A stretch of 64,000 nucleotides of DNA from assembly GCA_003223515.1 (NCBI GenBank), contig QHVI01000026.1:18345-82344 (forward strand), written 5' to 3'. Both the position numbers and the translations under genes were made by a program. This stretch comes from Candidatus Angelobacter sp. Gp1-AA117. GTDB taxonomy: Bacteria; Acidobacteriota; Terriglobia; Terriglobales; Acidobacteriaceae. The notes below the pieces were generated by a model that was not told the origin of the DNA, made no database searches, and saw nothing but the letters and a program-made list of their open reading frames with translations. Positions 16,170 through 41,220 of the stretch are shown here, piece after piece. Positions within the stretch are counted from its first letter, which is position 1; each line of letters starts with the position of its first letter.

Positions 16170-16427
16170 TTGAAAAAGGGTGTCCCGATGGCAAAGGTAT
16201 TTACGATTCCCGTAGTTCCTGATCTCTCCCGCCGCCGCAAGGGGAAACGCAGTTCCGATCCGCGCTATATCGAAGGCCAGCGCCTGCTGGTGGAAGCGAT
16301 GAAGTATCTGGCGCAGCAGGATCCAGAGCAGAACAAGGATGCGGTCATGCTGCTTTCGGAACATTTCCGCACACGCTTCCGCATGACCGATCGCCCTGAG
16401 GAATTCGTGGGCAATCCCAGTCTCTAA
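16170..16427 (+). CDS. Hypothetical small basic protein
   Basis: 85-aa ORF with no recognised family. Coding status uncertain. Confidence 0.3.
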   Translation: MKKGVPMAKVFTIPVVPDLSRRRKGKRSSDPRYIEGQRLLVEAMKYLAQQDPEQNKDAVMLLSEHFRTRFRMTDRPEEFVGNPSL

Positions 16428-19600: not shown

Positions 19601-20285
19601 CATGTCTGGAAACTATATCCTCCAGTCCGGCCAGCGGTACACGCCAGTGCAGTTGGGTTCGGCCTTCCTGCTGTCTTGCAGCGGAACACCGAGCACCTGT
19701 ACGGGCAGCTCCAACGGCAATTACTACGATGCGAGCTGGATCGGCGCTTTCAACGGTGTTGATATTGCCCGCCCGTTCTTCGGCAACGTGAATGCCCCGT
19801 TTAACACTGTGGGCATGTTTGCTGGAGATGCCTGCAACTTCTTCGCATTGACAGGTGCGGAACCCGTCTGCAATATCAATCCAAACACCATCATCAGTGT
19901 CAATGCGCTGAACCAGGGCCAGGGCATCACTGCCGGCACTACCCCTGTGAGCGTGACCCGGAACGATGTTCATTTCATCGTGAACAGCGGACAATCGCAG
20001 TCGCTTTTCGGCACGCCCTTCGGCAACGTACCGCGCAACATCGGTCAGGACGCCATCACGAATACTGGCAACTTCTCCGTCTACAAGAAGATCAAGCTGA
20101 CGGAGCGGGCCTCGTTCGAATTCCGCTCGACCATGTTGAATGTGTTTAACCACTTCAACTTCAACAGCGTTGACCCGTTTGTGGAAGACGCCGGCAACCG
20201 GTCATCCTTTAGCGGATTCGCCGATCCAAGCCTCACTGGAGCTCCTGGACGCAGAATCCTCTTCGGTGGAAAGATTACGTTCTAA
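16644..20285 (+). CDS. TonB-dependent receptor-like outer-membrane protein with CarboxypepD_reg-like N-domain
   Basis: 1213 aa. Signal peptide, GSLSGTVTDPQGAVVSGATVKV (carboxypeptidase-regulatory-like fold), plug-like NGLRGRNNDQQIDGQNNND, long beta-barrel ending in GGKITF. Confidence 0.9.
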   Translation: MNRKLRDIIVLIAISLALVWCIPAMGQVLKGSLSGTVTDPQGAVVSGATVKVTETATGAVRQTTSDSSGLFRVNLIPVGNYKVEVSAQGFKTAVQNDVIVSAGRDSGLGSVKLTVGETSTTVEVAAEAPLIETSQSQVTNTFSGTQLTTFAGVQENQGLDNLALFVPGVSAARDNGFSNTNGGTGFSVNGLRGRNNDQQIDGQNNNDNSVGGPSLFVSDTEFVQQYVLVTNQFGPEYGRNAGSVVNVITKSGTNNFHGSLYGSENNSVLNAMGNQTKNFTFVNGQRLSEPPRLNDEFGGFTIGGPIAKNKLFFFGGFDQEIINTTTPITTDTASPTPAGLAQLNGCFPGSSTLATWNKFGPYAISSGNPIPSPLPTDPANPATRSFLNINVGSCSKVQFGGVTRFVPQPTHNFNFINKVDWQLGSDIITARYIFNRGNNFNLDFGDAAAGYPVSVPALSQAVLVSWTHNLSSHMVNEARVSYGRLNVDFGGNTFGTVPVGSQLDQGLAQVLFRLPTCSFSGAFPCLGFTSIGSATNLPQFRFVNTWQGQDNWNYVLGKHTLKAGVNYTYQRSPNGFLPNVNGQYRFDGWNNPASLSSSSFIGNRPNRIRVAEGPTGLDFREHDTFLYGGDDWKVSQSLTLNLGLTWSYYGQPANLFNSITTTRESNPATAFWNPALPLSVRTFPTFPSPKNSFGPSLGFAYSPQWGGFLTGNGKTVIRGGYRLLYDPPFYNIYSNMATAAPEVFLQTFAGSAARSKPMPAVPLGPNVRNSLSAALTPGTLDPRTLNATTLTPNFGPDKVNAWVLGIEREVTKNSAIEVRYSGNRAYNLFQTVNGNPFVADLKQDFPNLVPSNITPCATTQQVGPGAGTDVGRVNCGPGVVRTRSNSGYSYYNGVQVEYRANNLFKQLTVRTGYTFSKNLDNVSEIFSTFGGGNSVAFAQNPLNTGRGEYSFSGLDYPHTWTALFTEQLPFFKEQHGLIGHLLGGWTMSGNYILQSGQRYTPVQLGSAFLLSCSGTPSTCTGSSNGNYYDASWIGAFNGVDIARPFFGNVNAPFNTVGMFAGDACNFFALTGAEPVCNINPNTIISVNALNQGQGITAGTTPVSVTRNDVHFIVNSGQSQSLFGTPFGNVPRNIGQDAITNTGNFSVYKKIKLTERASFEFRSTMLNVFNHFNFNSVDPFVEDAGNRSSFSGFADPSLTGAPGRRILFGGKITF

Positions 20286-20797: not shown

Positions 20798-23700
20798 ATG
20801 AATATAAAACTGCGCGACATTATGGCTCTCGTCGCCGTTACTCTCGCGTTGGTTTGGTGCATCCCGTCCGTGGGACAGGTCATTAAAGGCTCGATTTCGG
20901 GCACAGTGACTGATCCTCAGGGCGCGGTTGTCGCCAACGCGCAAGTAAAAGCGAAGAACGTGGACACCGGACAGGTTTCTACAACGACCAGCGATAACTC
21001 GGGTAACTTCCGGCTGAACCTCTTGTCGGTGGGCACGTACACCGTAGAGATCACAGCTCAAGGCTTTAAGACCGCCACCCATAGCAATGTTCCGGTTGCC
21101 GCCGGTGCAGATTACGGTATTGGCAGCATCAAGATGAGCGTGGGCGAAACCACCACCACCGTGGAAGTTTCCGCCGATGCTCCGCTGATTGAAACCACGC
21201 AGGCACAGGTGACCAACACCTTTACCAGCACCACGCTCAAGACCTTTGCCGGTATTGAGGAGAACGAAGGCCTGGATCGTCTGGCATTGTTTGTTCCCGG
21301 CGTCGCATCCAGCCGCAGCAACAACTTTTCCAATACCAACGGCGCCAGTATTTCCAGCAACGGCAACCGTGGCCGTAACAATGACCAGGAAATCGACGGT
21401 CAGAACAACAACGATAACAGCGTGGGCGGCCCGGGGCTCTTCGTGAGCAACACCGAGTTCGTCCAGCAGTACGTAATCGTAACCAACCAGTTTGGTCCTG
21501 AATACGGCCGCAATGCCGGTTCGGTGGTCAACGTGATCACCAAGTCGGGCACCAATTCGTGGCACGGCAGCTTGTTTGGAACGAACAACAACTCGTTCAC
21601 CAGCGCGCTCAGCAACACGCAGCACAACACTCCCAAGCCCGGCACCACCACCTCCACCAATCCTCAAGGCACTCCGTTCACCGGTCCTCCGCGCTCCAAC
21701 GAGGAATTCACCGGCGGCACCATGGGTGGCCCGCTCCTGAAGAACAAGCTGTTCATCTTCGGCGGCTTCGACAACGATCTTTTCTCCGGTACCAGTGTGT
21801 TCACCACCACCTCCCGTACTCCTACGCCAAATGGTTTGTCCAAGCTGGCTGGCTGCGGCGTGAATACCACGGCTCTCTCGATCATGCAGTCGTTTGGCCC
21901 CTATGCCTTCAGCTTCGGCAATCCGACTCCACGCAGCCCGCAGTTAGCTAATATTGGAACCTGCACGGGCGCCAATGGCGTAGAAATCGGTGGCGTAACC
22001 CGCGTTGTCACCACGCCCTTCCACGGCTTTGACTGGGTTCTGCGCACTGACCTGCAGTTGGGCGGTGACACCATTACCAGCCGTTACATCTTCAACCGTG
22101 GCAGCAACTTCAACATCAGCGACAACGGCGCAGGCGGCTGGGTACGGAACACCCCAGCGCTGAGCCAAGCTGTGCTGGAGAGCTGGACCCACAACTTCAG
22201 CTCCCGCATGGTCAACGAAGCCCGCATCGGCTTCAACCGCCTGAATGTGGAATTCGGCGGCGGCCTGAATCCGTTTGAGCCGGATGCCGGTCACCTGCTC
22301 AATGCCTTCACCAACATCGCCATCACCGGCTTCCTGGGCCTCGGCCCGGCCACCAACCTGCCGCAGTCGCGCCTGGTGAACGACTGGCAGGCCCAGGACA
22401 ACTGGAACTACGTCCTTGGCAAGCACAACTTCAAGTCTGGCGTGAACTGGACCTATCAGCGTTCACCTAACATCTTCCTGCCTATCGTCAACGGTGCGTA
22501 CAGGTTCTCAAGTCTTAACACCTTCCTGACCACTAACACTCCCAACCGTGTGCAGATCGCCAACGGTAATCCCAACCTGGATTTCCGCGAGTATGATACC
22601 TTCCTGTACTTCGGTGATGACTGGAAGATCAAGCAGAACCTGACCATCAACGCCGGCCTGACCTGGACCTACTATGGCCAGCCCGCCAATCTCTTTAACC
22701 AGCTCACTACTCAGGTAGAGAGCAACCCCAGCACGGCCCTGTGGCTGCAGTCGCTGCCTCTGGCCCAGCGCACCAATCCGCAGATTCCGGCGGTGAAGAA
22801 CAGCTTTGGCCCGAGCATCGGCTTTGCCTATTCGCCGCAGTGGGGTGGTTTCCTCACTGGTCATGGCAAAACCGTCTTCCGCGGCGGCTATCGCATGTTG
22901 TATGATCCGCCGTTCTACAACATCTTCGTAAACATCTCGTCATCGGCGCCGATGACCTTCCTGCAGACCGTAACCACCGGCCTGAACAGCACTATGCTTC
23001 CTGCTACTCCGACCGGTCCCAACGTGCGCGCGCAACTGTCGCCGCTCATCCAAAAGAACACCTTCGACCCACGCACCCAGAACGAGACCAACGTTTCTCC
23101 CAATTTTGGTCCTGACAAGGTGCACTCCTGGAGCGCCGGCTTCGAGCGCGAGATCACCAAGAACGCCGCTTTTGAAGCTCGTTATTCAGGAACCCATGGC
23201 TTCGACCTGTTCCAGACCGTGGACAGCAATCCGTTCCTCGGAACCACTGCCCGTCCTGGCCTGTTGCAGAACTTCCCGCAATTCCTGCCGCCCGGAACGC
23301 CTACCACTGCCTGCCAGACCACCCAGCAGGTGGGACCTGGTGCGGGCACCGATGTGGGTCGCGTAAACTGCGGAGTCGGTGTATCCCGTACCCGTAACAA
23401 TGGCGGGTTCAACGACTACAACGCCATGCAGTTGGAATTCCGCGCGAACGACCTGTTCAAGCAGTTGACCATGCGCACTGGTTATACCTGGTCAAAGAAC
23501 CTCGATAACGTCAGCGAGATCTTTGCCACCGGTACCGCCGGAAACACCCTGTTCGCTTCACAGAACCCCTTCCAGACCGGTGGCGCCGAGCGCTCGACAT
23601 CGGGCCTCGACTACACCCACATCTGGACGATTCTGTTCACCGAGCAGATTCCATTCTTCAAAGAGCAGCATGGCGTAGTTGGGCACCTGCTTGGCGGCTG

Positions 23701-24361
23701 GACACTCTCAGCCAACTACATTCTCGGATCAGGACAGCCCTATACCCCACAACAGAATGGCGAGGCTTTCCAGACCGCAACCGGCAACTACTATGACTCG
23801 GCCTTTGTCGGCGCGTTTGTAGGTGTTGACAGCGCGCGGCCGTTCTTCGGGAACAAGAATGCCCCGGCGAATGCCGTGGGTATCTACGCCGGTGATGCCT
23901 GCACAGGCTTTGCCGCCGTGTTCGGCGTGGGCGGTGTTGCCTGCGCTCTGCCGGCCAACACCCTGATCAGCATGAACGCCCTGAACGGCAATAAGGCGCT
24001 GCTGAGCACCACTACCAACCTCGTGACCGTGACTCCGGACCAGGTACGCTTCATCATCAATGGACGCGTTGCCCAGTCCGTCTTCGGCACTCCGTTCGGT
24101 AATGTTCCTCGCAACCCGCAGCGGGATGCGATCTCGAACATCGCCAACGCCTCCGTGTTCAAGAACTTCAAGTTGGGTGAGCGCGTGAACTTTGAGATGC
24201 ACATGACCGCACTCAATGCTCTCAACCACTACAACTTTGCCAGCATCGATGCAAACCTGGAGAACGCTGGAGTCGGAGTGTTTGGATCGGACTTCGCCAA
24301 TCCGAGCGTAACCGCCGCCGGTGGCCGTACGGTCATCATTGGTGGAAAGGTCACCTTCTAA
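20798..24361 (+). CDS. TonB-dependent receptor-like outer-membrane protein, tandem paralog of 16644..20285
   Basis: 1187 aa, collinear with the upstream paralog (MNIKLRDIMALVAVTLALVWCIPSVGQVIKGSISGTVTDPQGAVV ... GGKVTF). Confidence 0.9.
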   Translation: MNIKLRDIMALVAVTLALVWCIPSVGQVIKGSISGTVTDPQGAVVANAQVKAKNVDTGQVSTTTSDNSGNFRLNLLSVGTYTVEITAQGFKTATHSNVPVAAGADYGIGSIKMSVGETTTTVEVSADAPLIETTQAQVTNTFTSTTLKTFAGIEENEGLDRLALFVPGVASSRSNNFSNTNGASISSNGNRGRNNDQEIDGQNNNDNSVGGPGLFVSNTEFVQQYVIVTNQFGPEYGRNAGSVVNVITKSGTNSWHGSLFGTNNNSFTSALSNTQHNTPKPGTTTSTNPQGTPFTGPPRSNEEFTGGTMGGPLLKNKLFIFGGFDNDLFSGTSVFTTTSRTPTPNGLSKLAGCGVNTTALSIMQSFGPYAFSFGNPTPRSPQLANIGTCTGANGVEIGGVTRVVTTPFHGFDWVLRTDLQLGGDTITSRYIFNRGSNFNISDNGAGGWVRNTPALSQAVLESWTHNFSSRMVNEARIGFNRLNVEFGGGLNPFEPDAGHLLNAFTNIAITGFLGLGPATNLPQSRLVNDWQAQDNWNYVLGKHNFKSGVNWTYQRSPNIFLPIVNGAYRFSSLNTFLTTNTPNRVQIANGNPNLDFREYDTFLYFGDDWKIKQNLTINAGLTWTYYGQPANLFNQLTTQVESNPSTALWLQSLPLAQRTNPQIPAVKNSFGPSIGFAYSPQWGGFLTGHGKTVFRGGYRMLYDPPFYNIFVNISSSAPMTFLQTVTTGLNSTMLPATPTGPNVRAQLSPLIQKNTFDPRTQNETNVSPNFGPDKVHSWSAGFEREITKNAAFEARYSGTHGFDLFQTVDSNPFLGTTARPGLLQNFPQFLPPGTPTTACQTTQQVGPGAGTDVGRVNCGVGVSRTRNNGGFNDYNAMQLEFRANDLFKQLTMRTGYTWSKNLDNVSEIFATGTAGNTLFASQNPFQTGGAERSTSGLDYTHIWTILFTEQIPFFKEQHGVVGHLLGGWTLSANYILGSGQPYTPQQNGEAFQTATGNYYDSAFVGAFVGVDSARPFFGNKNAPANAVGIYAGDACTGFAAVFGVGGVACALPANTLISMNALNGNKALLSTTTNLVTVTPDQVRFIINGRVAQSVFGTPFGNVPRNPQRDAISNIANASVFKNFKLGERVNFEMHMTALNALNHYNFASIDANLENAGVGVFGSDFANPSVTAAGGRTVIIGGKVTF

Positions 24362-24739: not shown

Positions 24740-26137
24740 TCACGTTGATCCGGAGGGTGTCGTCGTTTGTCTGGACCTGGTAAACGCTCCCGCTGCAAAC
24801 ACCAGCACCACGGGGAAGCACTCCAGCATGTAGCGGGGTTCGGGGTTTTCAAGGGTGCCGAGGAACAAGGACCGCACCAGCACGAAGCCGGCCAGAACAA
24901 AACCATAAAGGCCCAGCCGCCAGCTTATCCAGCCACGCAGCGCCGCCAGCAGAAGCAGCAGGTTCAGTACCGCCCATAAAAAAGAAAAAGCGCTTTCTTT
25001 GGGATCGTTGGAGAACTCCCACCAGCGCGGATCCACAGGCAGCATCTCCGTGCGTGGACGCAGCCACATATCGGCAATACGCAGGGCGGGCAGCCACAGG
25101 TAATAGCGGAAAGGATTGTGGTTCATCCGTTCCCTTGCCAGCAACTCGAATTGCCAGTCCAGGGCGGGATCGATATAGAGCTGCTGGTTGTAGGCGGCAA
25201 TCAATTTTTCCGTGGCTTCGTATTCCGGGCGTGAATCGAAGGCCCGCTCGGGCAGGGAATTCATGCTGATGGATTCTCCGGAGACATGCCAGAACACTTC
25301 ATCCACAGAGACGAAATCCACTGTCCAGGTTTTTATCCAGTGGTTGAACCCCAGGGGCACAAATTCTCCCGGATCATCGGCATAGCGTGACGCCAGCGGC
25401 TGGAATATATGGAACGTTTTCCAGTTGCGTACTGTCCACGGGATGAGCGGACCAAGACTGGTGAGCAGCAACAGGGTTCCGGCGATCGCCGTTCGGTTCT
25501 TACTCAACGGCCTGAACATCAGGAAGAGCAGGACGGTGCCAAACGGCACCAGCAGGAGTAGGTTGTCCGGGCGCATGTAAATGGCTGCGGCCGTCCACAG
25601 GCCGCAGAAGCACCAGTGCCGGGCAGATTGCTGCCCGCCCTGGAGTTCTTTCAACCCGCGGATGCCGTAATAGAGTGCGTGGGCCGTGCAGAAGACCGCC
25701 AGGGTTTCAGAGAGTGGAGCGGCCGAGTAATTCGCCACAAAAGGGCAGAGCGCCGCCAATCCATAGGCAGCCTTGGCCGTCCTGGCATTCATGAGTTCCA
25801 GCGCCAGCGCAGCGATCACCAGGCAGGTATTGGTATCGATCAGCGCCTGCGCGACCATCACTGCGTGGTAATGCTCCTGGCCAAAGATGGAGAACATCAG
25901 TGCCAGGAACGTGGGGTAACCGGGCAGGCGAATCAGCGTAGGGCGGATATCCGGCCCGTCTGTCAGACCGTAAATGCCATGATTGAGCCAGTTCTTGGCG
26001 ATGTCGCCGTAGACGAAGCTGTCGCCAGCGACATGCGGATAGCGGAAAACAAAGAACAGCCGCAGGGCGAGAGCTGCGAGCGTGCACAACAGGAAAAACA
26101 GCTTGTTGTCGCGGATGAACTCGATGAGGCGTTTCAT
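24740..26137 (-). CDS. ArnT/PMT-like GT-C glycosyltransferase (family 39-type) membrane protein
   Basis: 465 aa with many TM helices. The N-terminal pattern RYPHVAGDSFVYGDIAKNW...RLPGYP is typical of ArnT/dolichyl-phosphate-mannose-type transferases. Confidence 0.7.
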   Translation of the reverse strand: MKRLIEFIRDNKLFFLLCTLAALALRLFFVFRYPHVAGDSFVYGDIAKNWLNHGIYGLTDGPDIRPTLIRLPGYPTFLALMFSIFGQEHYHAVMVAQALIDTNTCLVIAALALELMNARTAKAAYGLAALCPFVANYSAAPLSETLAVFCTAHALYYGIRGLKELQGGQQSARHWCFCGLWTAAAIYMRPDNLLLLVPFGTVLLFLMFRPLSKNRTAIAGTLLLLTSLGPLIPWTVRNWKTFHIFQPLASRYADDPGEFVPLGFNHWIKTWTVDFVSVDEVFWHVSGESISMNSLPERAFDSRPEYEATEKLIAAYNQQLYIDPALDWQFELLARERMNHNPFRYYLWLPALRIADMWLRPRTEMLPVDPRWWEFSNDPKESAFSFLWAVLNLLLLLAALRGWISWRLGLYGFVLAGFVLVRSLFLGTLENPEPRYMLECFPVVLVFAAGAFTRSRQTTTPSGST

Positions 26138-26344
26138 CAGTTAAGCTTTAATGTATCAGGGCTGCCTGGACCTGCTGGCGGTTCCTTCTTTTATCGACGT
26201 TTGCGCTCGAATCAAGAGAACGCGCGTATTCACCCGCAGAGTGTGATTCGGCAGCAAAGTTTAAGCTGTCGCGTATTGCGCGCTATAAGGCGGTGTCGCT
26301 TGGGTAAGTATTGGCCATCCGTCGGAAACAGTCGCAATTTGCTT

Positions 26345-28660
26345 CTATTGAGGGTCTGGTAATGATGGGCAGGTTCGGCGAGGAGCCTCGTTGGGCAGAT
26401 ACTCTTGCCACTCTTTTTTTGTTAAATTGCGCTGAAGATAAGAACAGGCCTTCTCAATCAAATCCTGACCTCGTACCCAATACTCCCGAATGAATATGGC
26501 CTCAGAGCCAATGGCCGCTGTTCGGATTCTCCGTCCGTCTTTGGAGAATTTTATGTTTTTTATGTTTCGCATATGATTGTCAATTTGGCCAATCTGATTT
26601 CCACCTGCGGCATCAAAAATTCGTACAATGCCGCCTCGTGTTGCAGAAGCGAACAATGTTCCATCATCAGTAATCGTTAAGGCAACGACTGCGCTGTCGT
26701 GAGGCAATACTCGTTGCAGTTTGCCTGTTTCCACATCGAAGATTCGAATATTGCTATCATCGCCTCCGCTGATGAGCAGCTTGTTGTCTTTGCTGAAACT
26801 TAGAGCGAGAACCGCGACCTTATCGGGTGACATCTGGCACTCCGTGGTAGATCTGTCAGAAAGCCTGAAAATGCGACATTTCTCGGCATCTCCGGTTGCT
26901 AAAAAATGACCATCTGGACTAACTGCTACTGCGTTTATCGGCCAGTCATGATTAATCGGTGGAAAGTGATTGCGAAAGTTTTTGGTTGCGTCAAACACGC
27001 GAGCCGAAATGTCTGAATTTCCATAAGTGCCTGTAGCGAGAATCTGGCTTGCCGAATCAAAAGCAAGGGCTTGGACTATGTTTTCGTGTGGAATAATCTT
27101 TATCGGTTTTCGGCTCACTACTTCAAAGATACGAACATTTCCCTGACCTTGGGGAACACTTATTCCGTCTCCGGTGGTCAGCCACTCATTGCTTGAATTG
27201 AACAGCACCGAAGCGACAGAGCCTTTGTGTTCGGACGATTCCCAACTGGATGAATCCGTAATATCAAAGACTCGCAAAATTCCATCTTCACTCCCGGTAG
27301 CTATTAGTCTATAGTCACTGCTCAAATCAATTGCCTGAACCCGGATGCTGGGAGTTGTGGGCAGCCGCAACACCTCGTCTCTGTTGATGATTTGAAATGC
27401 CCGTAGCTGCCTTTTAGACTCGCTAACAATAGCCAGGCGGTTGTGCGGGCCAAAGCAGATAGCGGTGACTGGGCCATCCAAAGGAAGCCTTGCCACCTCC
27501 CTCGCCGCACGCCAATCAAAGACGCGCGCTGTATGGTCGGAACTGGCAGTGGCCAACCAATTCCCGTCTTCACTAAACTCGACTGCGTTCACGAAATCCT
27601 GATGTTGCAGCAATGCACTTTCATCTCCTGTCGTAATATCGATTACGCGCGCAGTAGAGTCTCCGCCTGCAATGGCGACGAACTGGCTGTCCGGGCTGAA
27701 AACGACTGATTGGATGCGAGCTTCGTATTCCTTTCTGATCAGTTCATAGCGACCGTGTGAGTCAAAAACTCTGGCAATGCCGTCCTCACCTGCTGTTGCG
27801 ATCAGCTTTCCGTCAGGACTGAAAGCAATGGAACTGGAACGGTAAGCTGTCCTCAGTCTTAGGGTCTTCGCATTACTTGTATCTTTGAAGATACTGGCAC
27901 CATATTCGCCTGCGCTGGCTAGAAAGTGGCCTTCGGGAGCAAAACTTAAGGCCGTAATCTTGCCCGGTTGCCGTATCACAACGCGATGCCGGTGCGCATC
28001 TGCACTGTCAAAGATTCTGACATAATCCCCATTTGCAATGGCGAGCCTATCTCCTGTTGGACTAAATGCAATGGCCCTTATTTCCCCATAATACTTTTGC
28101 TGGGTTATGCTGCAAAACCTTATCTTCTGCGGTGGCGTGTTGCAGAACCCGTTTTCAGTAGCAAATATTTGTGCAATCCCGGAGGCCGTGCCGACGGCAA
28201 AATAACGGTCATCGTGGCTGAAGCTAAGAGCAAGCACCGCACCTTGAAATTTGTATCTAAAAATCGGAGCTCCGGTATCGGTTTCAGTTACTTGAACTAA
28301 CCCGTCAGATGTGCCGCCGGCCAGCCAGGCATGCTCCGCATTATGCATCTTGTGGCTGAAAGCAATAACATCTAAGGATGCGGAGCTTAAGGCCGGTAGT
28401 ATTCGCTCGGCAAGAAGATCCAGCGAGGTTCTGAGAGCTTGGTCTGTTTCAGGCAGCGCAGAAGTCCGCATGGCCTCGATTGCAAGTAGAGTGCTTGTTT
28501 CCACAGCGGACGCCCGTCCTATTAACAAGGATCTGGATTGACCTGCTAATTGACAGGCTTTTGCTCCAGACCTGTCGTCCATAGGTCCGTTCTGCAGCCA
28601 TAACGAAAATGCGGTCGCGTCTGGCAACAATACTACTAGCAACAACCAAAATCGCGTCAA
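26345..28660 (-). CDS. Exported/membrane-anchored WD40-repeat protein (about 14 blades)
   Basis: 771 aa. N-terminal hydrophobic segment MTRFWLLLVVLLP. About 14 repeats of the type IAFSPDGKLIATAGEDGIARVFD. C-terminal tail LIEKACSYLQRNLTKKEWQEYLPNEAPRRTCPSLP. Lies in low-GC DNA. Confidence 0.85.
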   Translation of the reverse strand: MTRFWLLLVVLLPDATAFSLWLQNGPMDDRSGAKACQLAGQSRSLLIGRASAVETSTLLAIEAMRTSALPETDQALRTSLDLLAERILPALSSASLDVIAFSHKMHNAEHAWLAGGTSDGLVQVTETDTGAPIFRYKFQGAVLALSFSHDDRYFAVGTASGIAQIFATENGFCNTPPQKIRFCSITQQKYYGEIRAIAFSPTGDRLAIANGDYVRIFDSADAHRHRVVIRQPGKITALSFAPEGHFLASAGEYGASIFKDTSNAKTLRLRTAYRSSSIAFSPDGKLIATAGEDGIARVFDSHGRYELIRKEYEARIQSVVFSPDSQFVAIAGGDSTARVIDITTGDESALLQHQDFVNAVEFSEDGNWLATASSDHTARVFDWRAAREVARLPLDGPVTAICFGPHNRLAIVSESKRQLRAFQIINRDEVLRLPTTPSIRVQAIDLSSDYRLIATGSEDGILRVFDITDSSSWESSEHKGSVASVLFNSSNEWLTTGDGISVPQGQGNVRIFEVVSRKPIKIIPHENIVQALAFDSASQILATGTYGNSDISARVFDATKNFRNHFPPINHDWPINAVAVSPDGHFLATGDAEKCRIFRLSDRSTTECQMSPDKVAVLALSFSKDNKLLISGGDDSNIRIFDVETGKLQRVLPHDSAVVALTITDDGTLFASATRGGIVRIFDAAGGNQIGQIDNHMRNIKNIKFSKDGRRIRTAAIGSEAIFIREYWVRGQDLIEKACSYLQRNLTKKEWQEYLPNEAPRRTCPSLPDPQ

Positions 28661-29094
28661 TTGGATATCCCTTATACCTAAAGTGCTACATTATAAGCGC
28701 TTGACATTAAACTCCAGCACTAAAGCAGTAGCGCTTAAGTGTACTGAAACACAGATACGTTTTAGTAGCATTTAGTATAGGCACGAGCACCATAGAAGGA
28801 GCAGGCATTAGACGGCTCTAATTTTGTGCGCCGGTTAAAAACGGAGTACCCTGGACGTAATTTTTTTTCCGGCCTTGCAAAATTTCTGGAATTATGCAAT
28901 ATAATCTCTCCGCGTCGGTCAGCAGTCTAGTAATCGTGGTCTGCCCGAGATCTTCGCCGTTTAGCCGTGCGCCATAGAACAGCTCTTCTTATTCTCTATG
29001 TAGCTACGGGTAATTGAAATCACGATTGATGTAACCCCGGTAGGGTCCAAGAAGGCGCCAGCAAATCACTTTTGGCAAAGGAGCTGTCCAGAAA

Positions 29095-29448
29095 ATGGCA
29101 AAGGCTGCTTTCTACGTACTAGCGATCTGTCTGATTATCTGCTGCATCGGGCAACGTACTTCGTTTGCTTGCCTGACCTATCATACAGACAAATTCGTCG
29201 CAACTGGCTGTGGTGATTCAGATTGTGTTTTCCAAACCTGCAATGACGGATTTGCACCAAATATGGATGAACTATTCCAACACAGCTCGGAGCAATTTGC
29301 CTCCCTTATATCGGGCTGGCAAACGAGCTACACTTCACCCGTGCGTAATCTGCAGCTTGCAAAGGTCAAGAGTCGCCGGGAACTGACATCTGAAACCGAA
29401 CGACACATGCAACTCAATGCATTGCTCGCTGCAGGGTGGCAGAAGTGA
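29095..29448 (+). CDS. Small Cys-rich secreted protein, hypothetical
   Basis: 117 aa. Signal-like MAKAAFYVLAICLIICCIG, then C-x12-C-x4-C-x4-C (ACLTYHTDKFVATGCGDSDCVFQTC). SD AAAGGAG lies 12 nt before the ATG. Confidence 0.5.
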   Translation: MAKAAFYVLAICLIICCIGQRTSFACLTYHTDKFVATGCGDSDCVFQTCNDGFAPNMDELFQHSSEQFASLISGWQTSYTSPVRNLQLAKVKSRRELTSETERHMQLNALLAAGWQK

Positions 29449-31109
29449 GGAAGTCACTTCAACCCGTGTTTTTTTTGATCATTACAGTGATGAGCCTCCT
29501 TCTTTTCGGAGTAGCACACGCATGGTCATTCCAAAAAAATATTGCCGCCGAAAAACTTCTGACCGAGAGCAATGGATTTGCCACTCAGCTTGGTCCAGGA
29601 CAGCGCGCTTCTTATCTGGTTTCGCTGACTGAAGTGGCAGCTCGTATTAGACATGAGCAGACTCGGGAATGGTGTCTTGAGCAATATCGATTAGCACCGC
29701 AAATCAACGATTCCGAGTGGAACGTTGCTTCCGTTCAAAAGAATGCTATTGCGCAGCTCTCCTATGTGGATTCACGAACGGCACTGGATCTTTTGAGCGG
29801 ACTCAAACAACCACCATATCCTAATTCTCAGGGGAAGCCCAAAATGCCTCCTCCTGAAAGTCTTGCCGCAGACGCCGCGGTCACCACATTCGCCAACTAT
29901 TGGCGTTCTGAGAAAGATAAACGGTTGGCATTAGCTGGGATTGAATCCGTTGCAAAGACCATTCCCGACAGGAACGGTGGGCAGTATCCCTTTAAGGCAA
30001 TGGCTTTCCTTGTGAAAGAGCTTCTGGCCAGAAGCGAGATTCAGGAGGCGGCTGGAATTCTCAAAGATGCCCTGCGCTACTACAAAGCAGAACGAGAAAA
30101 CAAGGATAAAGACCCCCAAAAAACGTTTGGCAACACAAACCGCGAATTCTTCAAATTGCTGGAAAGTTCGCAGTATGGAGTAGACTCCGCAGAGTATCAC
30201 AATAGCTTGGACGTATTTATAAACAGCCTTCTTGAAGATATTTCCAAGCCAAATCCCAACCAGCAGATAATTGTCTATACTGCGAATGGAAGCTTTGATC
30301 TGGGATCTGAGTCGGAAGAGCTCTTGCTTCGAACTTTGGATCTCGTGGCGGTATTGGAGCCGGAATGGTACAAGAAGCTTCAGAGCGACCACCCGGAAGT
30401 CTTTCAAAATGTCGGCAAGAAATTTGAACATGTTGAACGAGGCATGAATGAAGGTGGTCCGGCCAGTCCCAATCAGAAAGCAGCGATCAGATATCAAATG
30501 GAAGAGAATGCGGCCTTCGCTAAGATCAATTTCTTGAAGCAAACAAATCCGTGGGGCGCTCTTGATATTGCTCAGAAACTCACGGATCCGGGCAAACGCT
30601 TTGCTGGATATGCGTCGGTCATTTCGAGCATGGCTGATCTCGATCCTGCCCGGGCAATAAAACTCTACTCGCAACAGTTGTCCGAGTTGAAAGAAGTGGA
30701 TGATAAAGCCAAACTTACTGCTATGGTCCAAATGGCGAAAGCTGCGTTCTACGTCAAAGATTCCAGGACATTCTCAGATCTGGTTTTGACAGTTTTGGAT
30801 TCCGGCGTTAAGGCGGTCCAAAAAAGTGCCACTGGAGACATAGACGAGCGCCATGGCTACAGCCAATTGGCTGAATTAGTGGAATTCAGCTCTGAACATG
30901 GAGAAGCTTGGGTTGAAGATTCGATTCGCGCTCTGCCGGACCCTGCTCTCAAGGCATATTTACTGATTGCCGCAGCGAAAGGTGTCATCAAATCGAGAGT
31001 TCGAGTAAATACAGAGTATGTAGAGAATGAAAGTAAGTATTCCCAACCGCAAAGTAATCCTGTTAAGACACCAGCGAAAGCGCAGGCAAAAGCCAAGCTC
31101 CCAAAGTAA
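29436..31109 (+). CDS. Exported all-alpha (helical repeat-like) protein, hypothetical
   Basis: 557 aa. N-terminal anchor/signal VFFLIITVMSLLLFGVAHA; the rest is predicted helical and no family is recognised. Alternative GTG start at 29445 overlaps the upstream stop as GTGA. Confidence 0.6.
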   Translation: MAEVRKSLQPVFFLIITVMSLLLFGVAHAWSFQKNIAAEKLLTESNGFATQLGPGQRASYLVSLTEVAARIRHEQTREWCLEQYRLAPQINDSEWNVASVQKNAIAQLSYVDSRTALDLLSGLKQPPYPNSQGKPKMPPPESLAADAAVTTFANYWRSEKDKRLALAGIESVAKTIPDRNGGQYPFKAMAFLVKELLARSEIQEAAGILKDALRYYKAERENKDKDPQKTFGNTNREFFKLLESSQYGVDSAEYHNSLDVFINSLLEDISKPNPNQQIIVYTANGSFDLGSESEELLLRTLDLVAVLEPEWYKKLQSDHPEVFQNVGKKFEHVERGMNEGGPASPNQKAAIRYQMEENAAFAKINFLKQTNPWGALDIAQKLTDPGKRFAGYASVISSMADLDPARAIKLYSQQLSELKEVDDKAKLTAMVQMAKAAFYVKDSRTFSDLVLTVLDSGVKAVQKSATGDIDERHGYSQLAELVEFSSEHGEAWVEDSIRALPDPALKAYLLIAAAKGVIKSRVRVNTEYVENESKYSQPQSNPVKTPAKAQAKAKLPK

Positions 31110-31115
31110 AAGCGA

Positions 31116-32801
31116 TTAGTCGTTAATGCAAGCGGCAATTTTTTGATTCAGTGCTACTTGTTGTTGTGCCACTGAAATTTCACCAATGAACTTATAGCAT
31201 CCAGCAATCGCGGTTATTCTGACTTTGGTGCTGTTGACTGGAATCCAACAAGCATATTTTCCGTCTACGCTCGTAGCTTCTTCCGGTATCCCCTCCGTAG
31301 TGCATGAGAATTTTGTTTTAAGCACTGGTTTGCCTTCGAGATCAACCAATTTGATTGTAAATTTTGATATCGAGAGCTTTCGATTCCCATGCTCCTCCGG
31401 ATTATATAGCGGGTATAAAGGAATCCTCACATCTTGATTGTCAGCCGCGTCTAAGATGGCTGACTTTTCCCATGAAAAATCTCTTCTTTTTGCGTAGAAA
31501 GTCACACTTTGTGTGCTAAGCAGCGCTGCGGATGAAATTTCAAATTCAAATCTATTCCCGGTTCTTTTCCGCTGGCTTCTCACGGATGAAGTTATGTTTA
31601 CATCGGATACAGCCCGGTTCTGTACATCCACAGCAACCACATGGATGTGATATTTGTGAATGATGAATGACGGGCTGATCAGATTCCCCGGAGATTGGAA
31701 ATGCCTGCCTCTTGGTATTGCCAGGTAGAGGAGCAAGAGGAGGATCACGGTATACTCAACAAAAACTCTCTTTTTTTCTTGGTTGCGATGTTTCCGAACC
31801 TGATCATATCGAACTGCAACATCCATTTTAAGTTTATCAGCTTGCTCCTTTAGTCGGGTGGCCTTTTGTTGCTCGGCCTGTGCTTCACTAAACATTTCGG
31901 ATTGTTTTTTTGATTCTTCTTTCGCTTTTTTTGCTGCAGATTCAGCCTCTATGGCCAGGAACTCGATGGCCGCGAGCCGTCCTTTAAGAACAAGAAGCGT
32001 CTTCTCATCTTCTGTAATGGAAAAATCGGTAGTCCTGATGGGAGAGGGATCGACACTTATGGTCTGCTCACTATATTTCTTGACGACTAGCCGGTCATCG
32101 CGGTTTAGGATGATGTCAAAAATATCAGGTATGACAGAGCGGGGTTTATATTGTCTCTGTGTTCCAAGATAAACTGCAATAAAGTCCGTTCTGTGATTCC
32201 CCCGTTCTTGCTCATATTTTTGAAATTCTTCAACGGGATAATTGTTCAGCAAGCCACCATCAAAAACACGTTCACCCCCAATGGACTCCGGCTTGAAGAA
32301 TATTGGTATTGAAGCACTGCAGCGCACTGCGTAGCCAGCCTCTTCATCTCGACGCTGGCCTATTGAATCGAAAACACGAACACCACCGTGCGGAGTGCAA
32401 GCAAATATCACAGCGCGTAGTGGAAGATCACGAAGGTAAACGGGATCTTGACGAAACTGCCTTTTCAGTGACTCGTCTATCCACTGTCGCAACCGCCATC
32501 CCGGATACATCCAGAAATGTAACGGAAGGTTAACAAAGAGAGCTTTGAACAACGAACAGTCTCGAAACTTGGCAAAATCGACTTCTCGTAACTCCTTTTC
32601 CAAATCATTGCCTTTTAAACCGGCAGCTAACAACACAGCTGCGATCGCCCCAGCTGAAGTTCCAACGAATGTGCTAAAGTGATAGCCATTTTCCTCAAGT
32701 GCTTGAACTACTCCAGCAAAAATAAAACCTTTGACTCCACCCCCCTTTAGGATTAATACGTCAGGAGACACTATACCTCCTCGACAACAAACACATCTCA
32801 T
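31116..32801 (-). CDS. Patatin-like phospholipase with coiled coil, single TM helix and beta-rich C-terminal domain
   Basis: 561 aa. GGGVKG (oxyanion hole), GTSAG (GxSxG nucleophile), FDGGLLNNYP (catalytic Asp). Lys/Glu-rich coiled coil (EAESAAKKAKEESKKQSE...), TM VFVEYTVILLLLLYLAIP, then ~190 aa with no recognised family. Confidence 0.85.
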   Translation of the reverse strand: MRCVCCRGGIVSPDVLILKGGGVKGFIFAGVVQALEENGYHFSTFVGTSAGAIAAVLLAAGLKGNDLEKELREVDFAKFRDCSLFKALFVNLPLHFWMYPGWRLRQWIDESLKRQFRQDPVYLRDLPLRAVIFACTPHGGVRVFDSIGQRRDEEAGYAVRCSASIPIFFKPESIGGERVFDGGLLNNYPVEEFQKYEQERGNHRTDFIAVYLGTQRQYKPRSVIPDIFDIILNRDDRLVVKKYSEQTISVDPSPIRTTDFSITEDEKTLLVLKGRLAAIEFLAIEAESAAKKAKEESKKQSEMFSEAQAEQQKATRLKEQADKLKMDVAVRYDQVRKHRNQEKKRVFVEYTVILLLLLYLAIPRGRHFQSPGNLISPSFIIHKYHIHVVAVDVQNRAVSDVNITSSVRSQRKRTGNRFEFEISSAALLSTQSVTFYAKRRDFSWEKSAILDAADNQDVRIPLYPLYNPEEHGNRKLSISKFTIKLVDLEGKPVLKTKFSCTTEGIPEEATSVDGKYACWIPVNSTKVRITAIAGCYKFIGEISVAQQQVALNQKIAACIND

Positions 32802-33022
32802 CTATGGGGTGCAAAATTGTCCGGATGAAATAACTGGGATTGCCCATGCAGGGTCGCCCTTAGCTGTGCATGTTGAAAGCCAGTTCACAATGATATCCCA
32901 GAACATGTGCGATATCGTGTTCTTTTCATTCAGATTCCTGCACCGGTCAACGTATGATTGCACCGCGCTCATTCCATTGACCTCCCCTGCTATCCGGCTT
33001 ACGATTAATACAGATTTCTCCT

Positions 33023-38958: not shown

Positions 38959-39237
38959 ATGGCTGACAATAAGGGTACACACCCGCAACGCATACACTCA
39001 AGTCTGAGAGAACTCGCAAACTTCGATGAGGTCAAGGATAAAATCATTGCCGACATCGAACTCTCTTCCGATATGGAATTCTTTGCAATCACCGTCACAT
39101 TTCAGGACAGGACAACGCTCACTTTCATCATTGAGCCTGCTCTTGTCGCTTTCCCGGTTTTGTCGGATTGGCCAAAAGGCAATGAGAAGGTCATCAAGAG
39201 GTATAGAGCAGTTCGCAGCAAGATTCCACGGGCATAA
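38959..39237 (+). CDS. Hypothetical protein
   Basis: 92 aa. Good SD (AAGGAG 5 nt before the ATG) and a terminator just downstream. Low-GC DNA. Confidence 0.5.
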   Translation: MADNKGTHPQRIHSSLRELANFDEVKDKIIADIELSSDMEFFAITVTFQDRTTLTFIIEPALVAFPVLSDWPKGNEKVIKRYRAVRSKIPRA

Positions 39238-39256
39238 GCAAAGGTGAAACCGACGA

Positions 39257-39280
39257 ACCCGCCAGAGATGGCGGGTTTTT
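39257..39280 (+). terminator. Rho-independent terminator
   Basis: ACCCGCC-AGAGAT-GGCGGGT followed by TTTTAT. Confidence 0.65.
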
Positions 39281-39485
39281 ATTTGCTCGATTTCTTCCGC
39301 TTTGACCATCGGGCCTGTACGGCTTTACGAGCGGATTCACTTCTCTCTTCTGCGGTGAGTCTCTCTGCGCGTATCTTACCGCCTAAGCGTCCGCCCTTGC
39401 GTCCCATTTTTACAAAGTACTCGCGTATGTCTTCCGGTATTCGTGTCATGTCTCTTATTGTACGTAACCCCGTTACGAAACGCAA
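39279..39485 (-). CDS. Small basic protein, hypothetical
   Basis: 68 aa, Lys/Arg/Gly-rich (GRKGGRLGGKIRAERLTAEERSESARKAVQARWSKRKK). Its start codon lies 18 nt from the left end of the IS element. Confidence 0.45.
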   Translation of the reverse strand: MRFVTGLRTIRDMTRIPEDIREYFVKMGRKGGRLGGKIRAERLTAEERSESARKAVQARWSKRKKSSK

Positions 39486-39502
39486 TACGATTTATGTTGA
39501 CT

Positions 39503-40628
39503 TACGTAAGGGGGTCACGTAGTATTTTACCTGTAACGATAAAGCCCTAACCAGCACGCCAATGCCAGTCAGGGCCAGAATCCACCACAGCCGAAGCTGA
39601 GATGAACCCACAAGCTCATTATCCGGCAAAGCGGCTGTGGGACTCAAGGAGAATCCACAGTGAATTGTCCCTATTGCCAGATTGAATCCAAGCGTTTTGG
39701 AAAGCACCGTAATGGATTACTGCGCTTCCGCTGCCCTCAATGTCGTAAAACCTTTACAGAACCTCATCCTAAGCTGGTCAACATGCGCCTGCCGCTTGAT
39801 AAAGCCATCTCTATTGTGAAGCTGCTGGTGGAAGGAATGAGCATTCGGAGCATTGAGCGGTTTACCCAGGTACACCGTGACACGATCCTGAACCTGTTGT
39901 CTGTTGCTGGTGATCGTTGCGCTCGTTTGATGGACAGCACGATGCGTAATCTCACTTGCAGATACATTCAGTGTGATGAAATCTGGACATTCTGCTTTAA
40001 GAAGCAGAAGAGAGTCCGCAATGATGACCCTGAAGAGTTTGGCGATCAATGGGTGTTTGCTGCCATTGATGCTGATACGAAGCTGATTCCATGCTTCGCA
40101 ATTGGGAAAAGAACCAAAGCCACAACGGATACTTTGATTGGCGATCTCTCTGAGCGGCTTGCTAACCGCGTCCAGATCACAACGGACGGATTCAGATTTT
40201 ACGTGAATGCAATTGAGCATTCGTTTGGTGCAGATGTGGACTTCGCACAGCTTGTGAAACTGTACGGTGATTATGGGCAGCATGGCGCGGAAGCGAAATA
40301 TTCTCCAAGCCCGATAATAGAAACCATAGTGAAAGTACATCAGGGCAAACCCAATGAAAAGCACATCAGCACTAGTTACATCGAGAGACAGAACCTTACC
40401 ATGCGAATGATGATGCGGAGATTCACGCGCCTGACTAATGCGTTTTCCAAGAAAGCTGCAAACCTCAGAGCAGCAGCCGCATTGCACTTCGCCTATTACA
40501 ATTTCTGCCGTGTCCATCAAACCTTGAGAGTCACGCCTTGCATGGAAGCTGGCATCACTGACCGCGTTTGGTCAATGAGCGATCTGCTACAGTTAACGGG
40601 TAGTTAACTATCGAAACCCCCTTTCGTA
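39503..40628 (+). mobile_element. IS1-family insertion sequence (single-ORF type); ends approximate
   Basis: Imperfect terminal inverted repeats: TACGTAAGGGGGTCACGTAGT (39503-39523) against the reverse complement of ACTATCGAAACCCCCTTTCGTA (40607-40628), about 18 of 22 matching. They enclose the transposase gene. No target-site duplication was found. Confidence 0.6.
39660..40607 (+). CDS. IS1-family transposase
   Basis: 315 aa. InsA-like zinc finger CPYCQ...RFRCPQCRKTF, an HTH segment, and a DDE region ending YIERQNLTMRMMMRRFTRLTNAFSKK...ALHFAYYNFCRVHQTL. SD AAGGAGA lies 7 nt before the GTG. Confidence 0.85.
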   Translation: MNCPYCQIESKRFGKHRNGLLRFRCPQCRKTFTEPHPKLVNMRLPLDKAISIVKLLVEGMSIRSIERFTQVHRDTILNLLSVAGDRCARLMDSTMRNLTCRYIQCDEIWTFCFKKQKRVRNDDPEEFGDQWVFAAIDADTKLIPCFAIGKRTKATTDTLIGDLSERLANRVQITTDGFRFYVNAIEHSFGADVDFAQLVKLYGDYGQHGAEAKYSPSPIIETIVKVHQGKPNEKHISTSYIERQNLTMRMMMRRFTRLTNAFSKKAANLRAAAALHFAYYNFCRVHQTLRVTPCMEAGITDRVWSMSDLLQLTGS

Positions 40629-40653
40629 TACAATCCACTGCTGTAAAATGAAA

Positions 40654-40687
40654 AAGGCCGAACGCCTAATTAAAGCGTTCGGCCTTT
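40654..40687 (-). terminator. Hairpin terminator, stronger on the minus strand
   Basis: GGCCGAACGC-CTAATTAAA-GCGTTCGGCC. The minus strand continues with UUUUU (plus-strand A-run 40651-40655); the plus strand has only TTT. Confidence 0.5.
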
Positions 40688-40763
40688 CCTGCCCTCCCAA
40701 AGTTTCGGCTCAGGGATGTTACGAGCATTCCTGAAATCCATGCCGAAGAAAGGAGGCGAGAGC

Positions 40764-40841
40764 CATGACCAGACTCGTTTACGTTTTGGTCATGGTACAT
40801 ATCCAGACTAACGCAGTGATTATTATCGTGGTCTGGATATG
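40764..40841 (+). CDS. 25-aa hydrophobic peptide (hand-found), type I toxin-like / small membrane protein candidate
   Basis: MTRLVYVLVMVHIQTNAVIIIVVWI. AGGAGG at 40750-40755 lies 8 nt before the ATG. A terminator starts 7 nt after the stop. Confidence 0.4.
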
Positions 40842-40847
40842 ACTCCA

Positions 40848-40873
40848 CGGCCCCCGGCAAGGGGGCCGATTTT
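40848..40873 (+). terminator. Rho-independent terminator of the small hydrophobic ORF
   Basis: GGCCCCC-GGCAA-GGGGGCC followed by GATTTTT. Confidence 0.7.
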
Positions 40874-41220
40874 TCCAAAGATCGTTTGGAGGGGAATCCA
40901 GCAGGGCTGCTGAAGACACAAAGAGACACAAGCGTTGGTCCGCAGTAGGCATACCGGAATGCTCCCACATTCCGCAAAATCCTCCGGCAAATCCGGAAAA
41001 CTACCAATTTGATAGTAATCGTCCGTGAAGCCGGAATATGTGAATAAATCATACGTTTTTTGCCACCAGTTGACAAACCTAAACGAACGACAAATAATTC
41101 CAAATAATTATATTTCGCCTAATCTTCGCCTTGGCCTTTCTTTGCCCAGCAACGCACTAATAGGACACTACCATGGTATAAGGCATTATCGAAACTCGCA
41201 CCTCCCAAGGAGAATCCGGA

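Follow-up and report, generated by a model that had tools for sequence, protein, structure and literature searches.

A horizontally inserted four-gene island related to transmembrane STAND proteins is a candidate envelope-spanning conflict module in a Candidatus Angelobacter genome

Here we describe a low-GC island of four genes within a 64,000-nt stretch of DNA (the window; coordinates are window positions unless assigned to another locus) that matches a metagenome-assembled genome annotated as Candidatus Angelobacter sp. Gp1-AA117. The island is a horizontal insertion into a site that is empty in most related genomes, and it encodes a WD40 protein (component A), a small Cys-motif protein (component B), an alpha-helical protein (component C) and a membrane protein with a patatin-like phospholipase head (component D). 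The same four gene families are linked in distant loci, and component A is homologous to the repeat half of STAND NTPases that are predicted to span the membrane. Altogether these findings lead us to propose, with a probability of roughly 0.55, that the island is a four-gene module of an unannotated family of envelope-spanning conflict systems, serving defence or regulated cell death. The constant core of this family is a translationally coupled, exported pair consisting of the small Cys-motif protein B and the approximately 520-residue alpha-solenoid C. Codes beginning with L and P denote the loci and protein homologs of this analysis.

Results

The island occupies a conserved empty site

The four genes lie between two native genes, one encoding a PMT_2-type glycosyltransferase and the other a 1165-residue PgaBC-like protein. 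Through the latter we fetched 80 orthologous loci with about 10 kb on each side, from other Angelobacter species (70-75% identity) and from metagenome-assembled genomes of Korobacteraceae and Acidobacteriaceae (57-59%). The two genes are divergent and only 110-220 bp apart in about 70 of these 80 loci, compared with 6,885 bp in the window, and relatives of the four island proteins were found in none of the 80 loci within about 10 kb on either side (tblastn, E<1e-5). A promoter-like element, TTGACC-17-TACGAT (32977-33005), lies about 20 nt upstream of the PgaBC-like start and is intact to the right of the insertion in the empty-site alignment. The element is also kept at the equivalent position in L004-L016, Angelobacter species with only about 72% protein identity. 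Its retention at the right border indicates that the block was inserted between the PMT_2 start codon and the element.

The composition of the block is foreign as well. GC content is 47.4% in 26138-33022 and 55.9% in the remainder of the window, where the lowest value among 434 windows of equal size is 53.5%. Values per kilobase within the island range from 43.5 to 50.8%, and 500-nt sliding windows trace an unbroken dip from about 26.1 to 33.0 kb (0.42-0.53, with flanks at 0.55-0.61). GC at the third codon position is 47, 49, 47 and 41% in the genes of components A, B, C and D, and 69-74% in the flanking genes, so that both sliding-window GC and codon usage set the island apart from its flanks. 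An initial annotation of this DNA had proposed from spot counts that the region was a low-GC island that might have been acquired horizontally. The contrast it described is real, although its counts were slightly low inside the island and slightly high outside, and the acquisition is borne out by the empty site in about 70 related loci together with the foreign overall and third-position GC. It had seen no integrase, tRNA or direct repeats at the borders, and we likewise found no tRNA at the island, no integrase among its open reading frames and only short repeat matches at chance level at its borders; the empty sites establish the insertion despite this.

Other DNA has entered the same site. 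In L022 (7734-9647) and L024 (6486-8393) the insertion encodes a secreted 635-residue protein that is phosphoesterase or phospholipase C-like by motif IIIVGENRSFDHLF, and in L030 (5744-9926) it encodes a TonB-type receptor and a 267-residue secreted protein. Envelope cargo appears to integrate repeatedly in the PMT_2/PgaBC-like intergenic region. Three contigs (L001-L003) are 99.9-100% identical to the window and provide too little variation for judging start codons or selection.

The four gene families are linked in divergent loci

We inspected about a dozen loci, all selected through homologs of component C. L084, in which C is 41% identical, repeats the layout of the window: a 743-residue WD40 protein on the minus strand, a 118-residue small protein whose gene overlaps that of a 532-residue helical protein on the plus strand, and a convergent 262-residue membrane protein. 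The components of this locus are 37-41% identical to those of the window and have the same order and orientation. In L086 (C 31% identical; 31-33% overall) all four families lie on one strand, in the order D, B, C, A. Partial sets are found on the P0126 contig, where a small gene, a helical gene and a convergent 243-residue CarboxypepD_reg-like gene correspond to B, C and D, and in L087 (B, C and D) and L088 (C, D and a truncated B), both with a convergent fourth gene. In each of the three loci with both ends visible, namely the window, L084 and L086, a free WD40 protein is accompanied by a member of the D family. That the families recur at 31-41% identity, once in a rearranged order, excludes chance co-location, and the four genes very probably form one functional module. 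The initial annotation had read them as a possible module, and the linkage of WD40, helical and Cys-rich genes with the D tail in L084 and L086 supports that reading.

Some loci with C homologs have a mobile-element context: L096 contains an integrase, and L094 and L084 contain Mom and Rad52 genes. In L084 a 102-residue open reading frame (10602-10910) immediately past the module duplicates the D-family beta-sandwich tail, and about 2 kb farther along lies a gene for a Rad52/Rad22-type recombinase (12918-13910), which hints at a phage or mobile context.

Component A resembles the outer half of a transmembrane nSTAND1-WD40 protein

Component A matches the Pfam WD40 and beta-propeller models. 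Its residues 39-768 align with residues 457-1164 of an L093 protein in which a transmembrane helix and an nSTAND1 NTPase domain are joined to WD40 repeats (29.6% identity, E 8e-82); the aligned region of the L093 protein extends from just after its transmembrane helix to its C-terminus. The two proteins share a motif in the linker, '...STLLA(I/V)E(A/S)MR...DQALR.SLD(L/I)L', and another in the tail, 'AC(S)..(L)..NLT..EW..YL......R(K/R)TCP.LP'. Since the alignment includes both linker and C-terminal tail, component A corresponds to the predicted extracytoplasmic half of a transmembrane nSTAND1-WD40 protein, in which what appears by sequence to be a signal peptide has taken over the position of the NTPase and transmembrane helix. 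This makes the earlier view of the WD40 protein as sensor-like more specific. Over its full length component A is 37% identical to the L084 WD40 protein, which has a signal peptide (E 1e-152), and 33% identical to that of L086. We also considered the TolB and BamB propellers and rejected both, the NCBIfam scores being 22.7 against a cut-off of 343 for TolB and 14.4 against 285 for BamB.

The predicted signal peptide of component A requires translation from a TTG codon. A Shine-Dalgarno-like AAGGGA motif lies 7 nt upstream of this TTG, and the orthologs carry a clear signal peptide in L084 MFRRAVSIFLLAISLISAGLGQEKK and an anchor in L086. On these two grounds we accept the longer form.

In loci with more distant C homologs (27-32% identity) the small gene is kept upstream and an nSTAND1 NTPase replaces the free WD40 protein. 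An nSTAND1 protein with leucine-rich repeats (LRR) lies beside the B-C pair in L089 (9882-13157), L090/L091 (3830-7111 in L090) and L096 (1686-5096), and an nSTAND1-WD40 protein follows a SIR2 gene in L093 (2336-5830). A second nSTAND1-WD40 protein (12408-16295) adjoins the whole four-family module in L086. In all five of these nSTAND1 proteins the NTPase is set apart from its repeats, WD40 or LRR, by a strongly hydrophobic helix, and the LRR type has two additional N-terminal transmembrane helices. A K/R-rich stretch precedes the helix in L093, so by the positive-inside rule the repeats should face the periplasm; this arrangement implies that the nSTAND1 proteins are transmembrane, with repeats predicted to face outward. 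No D-family gene was seen in the small sample of loci that have only nSTAND1. The four island proteins contain no NTPase domain by Pfam, PADLOC and NCBIfam, in agreement with the initial annotation.

The B-C pair also has neighbors typical of conflict systems: in L090 a CHAT gene in convergent orientation, in L085 an adjacent TIR gene and in L093 SIR2. L094 (GCA_037025225.1; 5738-11369) contains an operon of TIR, a MoxR-like AAA ATPase and a 1122-residue fusion protein in which an unknown N-terminal domain and transmembrane helices are followed by the solenoid domain as the C-terminal half. This operon adjoins helicase, DUF6094 and Mom-like genes.

Components B and C form the constant exported pair

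Component B shares 54% identity with the small protein of L084 over residues 6-44, which comprise the signal and the Cys motif (E 4e-12). In an alignment of eight members of the B family, the Cys that directly follows the signal is invariant, and a GxCGDSxCxxxC-like motif is present. The members have in common a signal peptide, a cleavage-like site of the form small-x-Ala, a Cys at the first mature position and a non-conserved tail. A small signal-peptide Cys gene lies directly upstream of the stand-alone C homolog in 10 of 10 loci (L084-L091, L093 and L096), and a 4-nt overlap of start and stop recurs between the two genes among homologous loci. In the window an in-frame GTG at 29445 would give a 4-nt GTGA overlap with the stop of the small gene; homologs show ATGA overlaps.

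A word-indexed search had returned only self matches for B and C, as if both were orphans. For component C this reading is overturned by a full HMMER scan: with phmmer/HMMER searches of 1.84 billion representatives, the homologs fall into at least 283 clusters at a threshold of E<=1e-3, and 190 clusters reach E<=1e-10. Most are full-length proteins of about 500 residues with 25-41% identity. Component C has no match in Pfam, PADLOC or NCBIfam and component B none in Pfam, and among the homolog clusters examined no C homolog has a Pfam domain in the C domain itself. The solenoid domain is fused to caspase C14 and Sel1 in P0173 and to PDZ in P0195. A metagenome scan with a six-sequence C alignment yielded two loci only, and a tblastn search of plasmids with component C yielded no match.

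An AlphaFold model of component C built with a 62-sequence alignment is confident (predicted local distance difference test score, pLDDT, 91.6; predicted template-modeling score, pTM, 0.88) and depicts an all-alpha solenoid with a small beta insert; it replaced a poor single-sequence model (pLDDT 58). Foldseek comparison of the model with the PDB and with viral structures returned only generic ARM/TPR/HEAT-like matches (TM-scores <=0.26). The model leads us to read component C as a probable binding scaffold and not an enzyme.

Component D joins a patatin head to a module-specific tail

The head of component D matches PF01734 over residues 16-193 (E 2e-33; 116.7 bits against a gathering cut-off of 27.7), and its oxyanion motif GGGVKG at residue 20, nucleophile motif GTSAG at residue 47 and catalytic DGG at residue 181 are intact. 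The patatin and WD40 identities that the initial annotation had assigned from the sequence agree with Pfam. A K/R-rich segment, RKHRNQEKKR, on the N-terminal side of the transmembrane helix suggests by the positive-inside rule that the N-terminus is inside and the C-terminus outside. In BLASTP comparisons residues 354-533, largely the region past the transmembrane helix, match L084_262 (E 4e-18). The tail also matches L084_102 (E 1e-12), the C-terminus of L087_302 (E 4.5e-8) and L088_409 (E 3e-3), and the proteins that share this tail match Pfam CarboxypepD_reg (E 5e-8 to 5e-5). The heads on the tail differ: patatin in the window, Abhydrolase_6 in L087 and a DUF676/PGAP1-type esterase in L088. 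In L084, L086 and the P0126 contig the D family has only two or three transmembrane helices and no enzyme head. This supports the first reading of the patatin as part of the module, with the refinement that the tail is constant and the patatin head one of several that are interchangeable.

The patatin domain of component D is 38-49% identical to a large soil-bacterial patatin clade (P0002-P0120; the best 120 were compared). A transmembrane helix lies within 130 residues after the patatin domain in 90 of these 120 closest homologs, and the clade gives the impression of a separate family of effectors that are anchored in the membrane. The N- or C-terminal domains added to the closest patatins vary and include AAA ATPases (AAA_35), ankyrin, CHAT, FGE-type lectin, HAF repeats, a receiver domain and nucleoside phosphorylase. 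The D tail matched the C-terminus of none of the 120 homologs, which argues that the tail stems from the module family and not from the patatin family. Judged by its sequence, component D looks like the head of a mobile, membrane-anchored patatin clade grafted onto a module-specific tail.

Gene layout and start codons

The features of the island and its flanks are listed in Table 1. The open reading frame list confirms the four genes at the positions first reported, and it shows that the small and helical genes overlap by 13 nt and that 6 nt separate the stops of the convergent helical and patatin genes. Hydropathy places hydrophobic segments at residues 4-22 of the WD40 protein (TTG start only), 1-28 of the small protein and 6-32 of the helical protein, in addition to the D helix, in keeping with the earlier claim that all four products carry an N-terminal signal or anchor or an internal transmembrane helix. 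A sigma-70 consensus scan of the divergent intergenic region (28661..29094) stayed at chance level and did not locate promoters, and a terminator scan was also at the level of shuffled sequence.

Public gene calls are shorter than the longest open reading frames in three of the four genes (WD40 745 versus 771 residues, helical 539 or 547 versus 557, patatin 551 versus 561). The disputed start regions are 28582-28660, 29436-29490 and 32772-32801.

Table 1. Features of the island and its flanking genes (window positions; a dot marks features without a strand)
Feature	Position	Strand	Description
PMT_2-type glycosyltransferase, left flank, native	24740..26137	-	orthologs with 61-72% identity directly beside the PgaBC-like gene in related genomes; Pfam PMT_2 called on L001
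Low-GC inserted island, about 6.8 kb	26170..32975	.	borders approximate; within the PMT_2/PgaBC-like divergent intergenic region
Component A, WD40 protein, 771 residues from TTG start	26345..28660	-	signal peptide residues 1-17, helical linker residues ~35-95, WD40 repeats, Cys-containing C-terminal tail ACSYLQRNLTKKEWQEYLPNEAPRRTCPSLP
Intergenic region separating the divergent WD40 gene and small/helical pair	28661..29094	.	presumed promoters, from gene layout
Component B, small exported Cys protein, 117 residues	29095..29448	+	signal peptide ending SFA/C, motif C..F..GCGDSDC...C, non-conserved tail
Component C, exported alpha-solenoid, 557 residues from GTG 29436 or 554 residues from GTG 29445	29436..31109	+	signal peptide ending AHA/WS
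Component D, whole gene	31116..32801	-	
Component D tail, predicted extracytoplasmic beta-sandwich, residues 366-561 and stop codon	31116..31706	-	the part that stays constant within the D family
Component D middle, charged coiled-coil-like linker (residues 291-346) and single transmembrane helix (residues 347-365)	31707..31931	-	hydropathy
Component D head, predicted cytoplasmic patatin-like phospholipase, residues ~13-290	31932..32765	-	PF01734; GGGVKG, GTSAG, DGG
PgaBC-like protein, right flank, native, 1165 residues	33023..36520	+	deacetylase and glycosyltransferase fusion, label from sequence only

Discussion

A role of the module in conflict or cell death is, in our judgment, somewhat better than an even bet. 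The specific signaling scheme that we envision is more tentative and, in our judgment, somewhat less likely than not. In this scheme components A, B and C would be exported and would assemble a periplasmic sensing complex, while component D would cross the inner membrane, the tail lying on the outer side and the patatin head on the inner. An envelope-level cue, from phage or another attack, would alter the A-B-C complex, and the altered complex would engage or cluster the D tails and thereby activate the patatin heads. Hydrolysis of inner-membrane phospholipids by these heads could then arrest growth or kill the cell. The STAND variants would rely on their transmembrane NTPase both to connect the two sides of the membrane and to act as a nucleotide-dependent switch, and their cytoplasmic effectors would be SIR2, CHAT or TIR. 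In the NTPase-less clade component D would make the connection instead. The co-occurrence of A and D in the window, L084 and L086, and the absence of D from the loci that have only nSTAND1, fit this division of labor within a small sample.

Several considerations weigh against this interpretation. Some concern the predictions themselves. Gene callers start the WD40 protein at M27, an ATG 26 codons after the TTG at 28660, and this start removes the signal segment. The predicted topology comes from hydropathy and the positive-inside rule only, and in L088 the hydrolase head is apparently on the same side as the tail. Function, and any phage or other trigger, are predictions from sequence. Others concern the mechanism and the setting. 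The window locus has no NTPase, and the logic of the STAND switch is not simply transferable to it; the solenoid of component C, having only generic fold matches, gives no functional lead. The island has three transcription units, with A divergent and D convergent, and is not a single operon, unlike most defense systems. The insertion site is permissive but not specific to defense, the other insertions there being ordinary secreted or outer-membrane cargo. Finally, the loci inspected are all metagenomic, many lie on short contigs, and they were chosen through one protein family.

The main alternative is that the island is an accessory module for remodeling of the envelope or its lipids and has no conflict role, the exported proteins serving as a scaffold for a lipase that recycles envelope phospholipids during stress or for nutrient use. 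All four products are envelope-directed, the island sits between genes for envelope polysaccharide, and insertions at the same site encode the secreted phosphoesterase or phospholipase C-like protein and the TonB-type receptor. The enzyme heads of the D family are moreover all lipase or esterase folds, and the WD40 protein has weak, sub-threshold NCBIfam similarity to propellers of the TolB and BamB type. However, these scores fall far under the cut-offs, and the heads swap on a constant tail that also occurs in head-less transmembrane versions. The distribution of the module is sporadic (0 of 80 related genomes at the site or within about 10 kb on each side), its composition is foreign, and its relatives are joined to nSTAND1, SIR2, TIR, CHAT and caspase, not to lipid enzymes. 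We consider this explanation improbable, but worth keeping in view.

Of similar, low probability is a role in conflict or recognition between cells, in which the module would sense attack by a competitor or predator, or contact with non-kin, at the envelope and trigger either a membrane response or altruistic death. Such a role has been proposed for STAND-type systems of bacteria that live socially. The predicted location of the sensing parts is extracytoplasmic, where sensing of phage components is rare, and the secreted four-Cys peptide could serve as a signal or bait. Kaur et al. (PMC7159879, PMC8195603) tied related systems of constant and variable components to a multicellular habit, which favors this explanation too. 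Yet Pfam, PADLOC and NCBIfam reveal neither a secretion apparatus nor an immunity gene nor any signature of polymorphic toxins among the island proteins, and anti-phage systems are the best-known setting of the SIR2 and TIR partners. The present data do not separate recognition between cells from anti-phage defense.

Less probable still is that the island is a decaying remnant, non-functional cargo left by a transmembrane STAND system that lost its NTPase. The window indeed has no NTPase, its WD40 protein is only the C-terminal part of a transmembrane nSTAND1-WD40 protein, and start codons are ambiguous in three genes. But the four open reading frames are long and intact, with catalytic motifs present, and L084 and L086 both have the NTPase-less WD40 protein, fitted with a signal peptide or an anchor and 33-37% identical, which indicates maintenance over a long divergence. 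The NTPase-less form is, in addition, always accompanied by the D family, an alternative transmembrane link. That four unrelated cargo genes share the island by chance, an alternative that the initial annotation had kept alongside its module reading and that the three separate transcription units and the absence of a matching known system might favor, is contradicted by conserved linkage of the same four families in independent divergent loci, one of them rearranged, at protein identities (31-41%) that argue against one recently spread element, and we regard it as highly implausible.

We therefore favor a module of an envelope-spanning conflict family, and comparison with known systems indicates where such a family would stand. 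PADLOC-DB v2 has no model for component B, component C, the D tail or the transmembrane nSTAND1-LRR proteins, which is in line with the initial failure to match the locus to a system that could be named; its only matches are at domain level, to models of phospholipase effectors and, for WD40, to part of a candidate model. In the open-access full-text literature we found nothing closer to this gene combination, although absence there is not proof of absence from the literature. Kaur et al. (PMC7159879, PMC8195603) defined nSTAND1 and many systems that pair constant components with variable effectors, with no mention of patatin, of an exported B-C pair or of STAND repeats that face the periplasm. 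A 2026 survey of defense STAND proteins does not mention periplasmic or membrane-spanning sensors.

The closest relatives are STAND systems of the nSTAND1 type (PF20703; PMC8195603; Avs/NLR-like, PMC13581612). Component A is homologous to the repeat half of nSTAND1-WD40, and relatives of the module carry nSTAND1-LRR or nSTAND1-WD40 together with SIR2, CHAT or TIR, following the same logic of a repeat sensor and a death effector. The window differs in having no NTPase, in repeats that are predicted to be extracytoplasmic, in the added exported B-C pair and in an effector that is a separate membrane protein. Of the features by which STAND systems are recognized, the locus has a homologous repeat sensor and an associated effector domain, the patatin in its own membrane protein, and has no P-loop NTPase. 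Although evolutionarily derived from a STAND system, it cannot be classified as one since the defining NTPase is absent.

With CBASS (cyclic oligonucleotide-based anti-phage signaling system) and its CapV effector, the island shares a patatin-like phospholipase as presumed membrane-destroying effector and has weak matches to the PADLOC 'Effector Phospholipase' and NCBIfam CBASS_lipase models. Phospholipase and transmembrane effectors are interchangeable in CBASS, and the heads of component D are interchangeable in a similar way. In contrast to CBASS, the window has neither a CD-NTase nor a cyclic-nucleotide sensing domain, and its patatin appears to be membrane-anchored with a predicted extracytoplasmic tail, whereas CapV is soluble. 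We rejected membership in CBASS because there is no cyclase among the four island proteins, the flanks being native glycosyltransferases, and because CBASS_lipase scores 36.5 bits against a cut-off of 200.

The two-gene EACC1-caspase and ternary vWA-MoxR systems (PMC7159879) likewise set constant components beside highly variable effectors and are associated with membranes. Two relatives recall them: the solenoid relative P0130 lies in an operon of TIR, a MoxR-like AAA protein and a large protein, and P0173 is fused to a caspase. The constant components are nevertheless non-homologous, and EACC1, a domain with a single transmembrane helix, was not found in the island. Most of the systems described there show no sign of secretion (PMC7159879), whereas three of the four window proteins have predicted signal peptides. 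We rejected both systems as an identity for the island, the gene set found here not being described among them.

A precedent for periplasmic sensor domains in STAND and ternary conflict systems comes from a 2024 study of the targets of diversity-generating retroelements (DGRs), in which some diversified antigen sensors were predicted to be periplasmic (PMC10907252). Those sensors are C-type lectin or FGE domains diversified by a retroelement and include no pair of small protein and solenoid, and the window module has neither a DGR nor a lectin domain. In eukaryotes, surface receptors such as Toll-like receptors and plant LRR receptor proteins combine an extracellular repeat sensor, a single transmembrane helix and a cytoplasmic signaling or death domain. 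The layout of NTPase, transmembrane helix and LRR in the L089, L090 and L096 proteins is reminiscent of these receptors; we intend this as an analogy and claim no homology. The window version differs by splitting sensor and effector into separate proteins.

Within the STAND-related systems that combine constant parts with swappable effectors, the module is set apart by a sensing half that is predicted to be extracytoplasmic, by a new and apparently exported constant pair and, in this clade, by the lack of an NTPase. To our knowledge, almost all characterized bacterial immune sensors are cytoplasmic. It is conceivable, though at present doubtful, that the island is the first example of a class of immune or cell-death systems whose surveillance is directed at the periplasm and not at the cytoplasm. 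On that equally speculative reading, a pair of Cys-peptide and solenoid would act with extracytoplasmic WD40 or LRR sensors and signal through either a transmembrane STAND NTPase or an NTPase-less, single-pass phospholipase. If so, the class would be a prokaryotic counterpart of surface pattern-recognition receptors, and the island (6.8 kb, four genes) a compact case of extracytoplasmic sensing coupled to a membrane-lytic effector.

Homology ties the module to the transmembrane nSTAND1 NTPases, a much larger and unannotated group in which the repeats, WD40 or LRR, apparently face the periplasm. It also gives a context to an unannotated alpha-solenoid family of at least 283 clusters, to a small Cys protein and to a membrane-anchored patatin clade. 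Comparison of NTPase-less and NTPase-containing variants could reveal how far the STAND switch is dispensable.

Other features of the window

To the left of the island, two tandem genes (16644-20285 and 20798-24361) encode large proteins that have the look of TonB-dependent receptors, each with a carboxypeptidase-regulatory-like N-terminus. The protein at 20798-24361 is syntenic with PMT_2 in many relatives, and other relatives have only a weakly similar protein there (26-37% identity). To the right, a second low-GC stretch (39000-41100, 48-50% GC) contains an open reading frame at 39660-40607, whose product combines an N-terminal CxxC...CxxC zinc ribbon with a DDE-like body and resembles a transposase of the IS1/IS1595 type. 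This stretch is probably an insertion sequence unrelated to the island.

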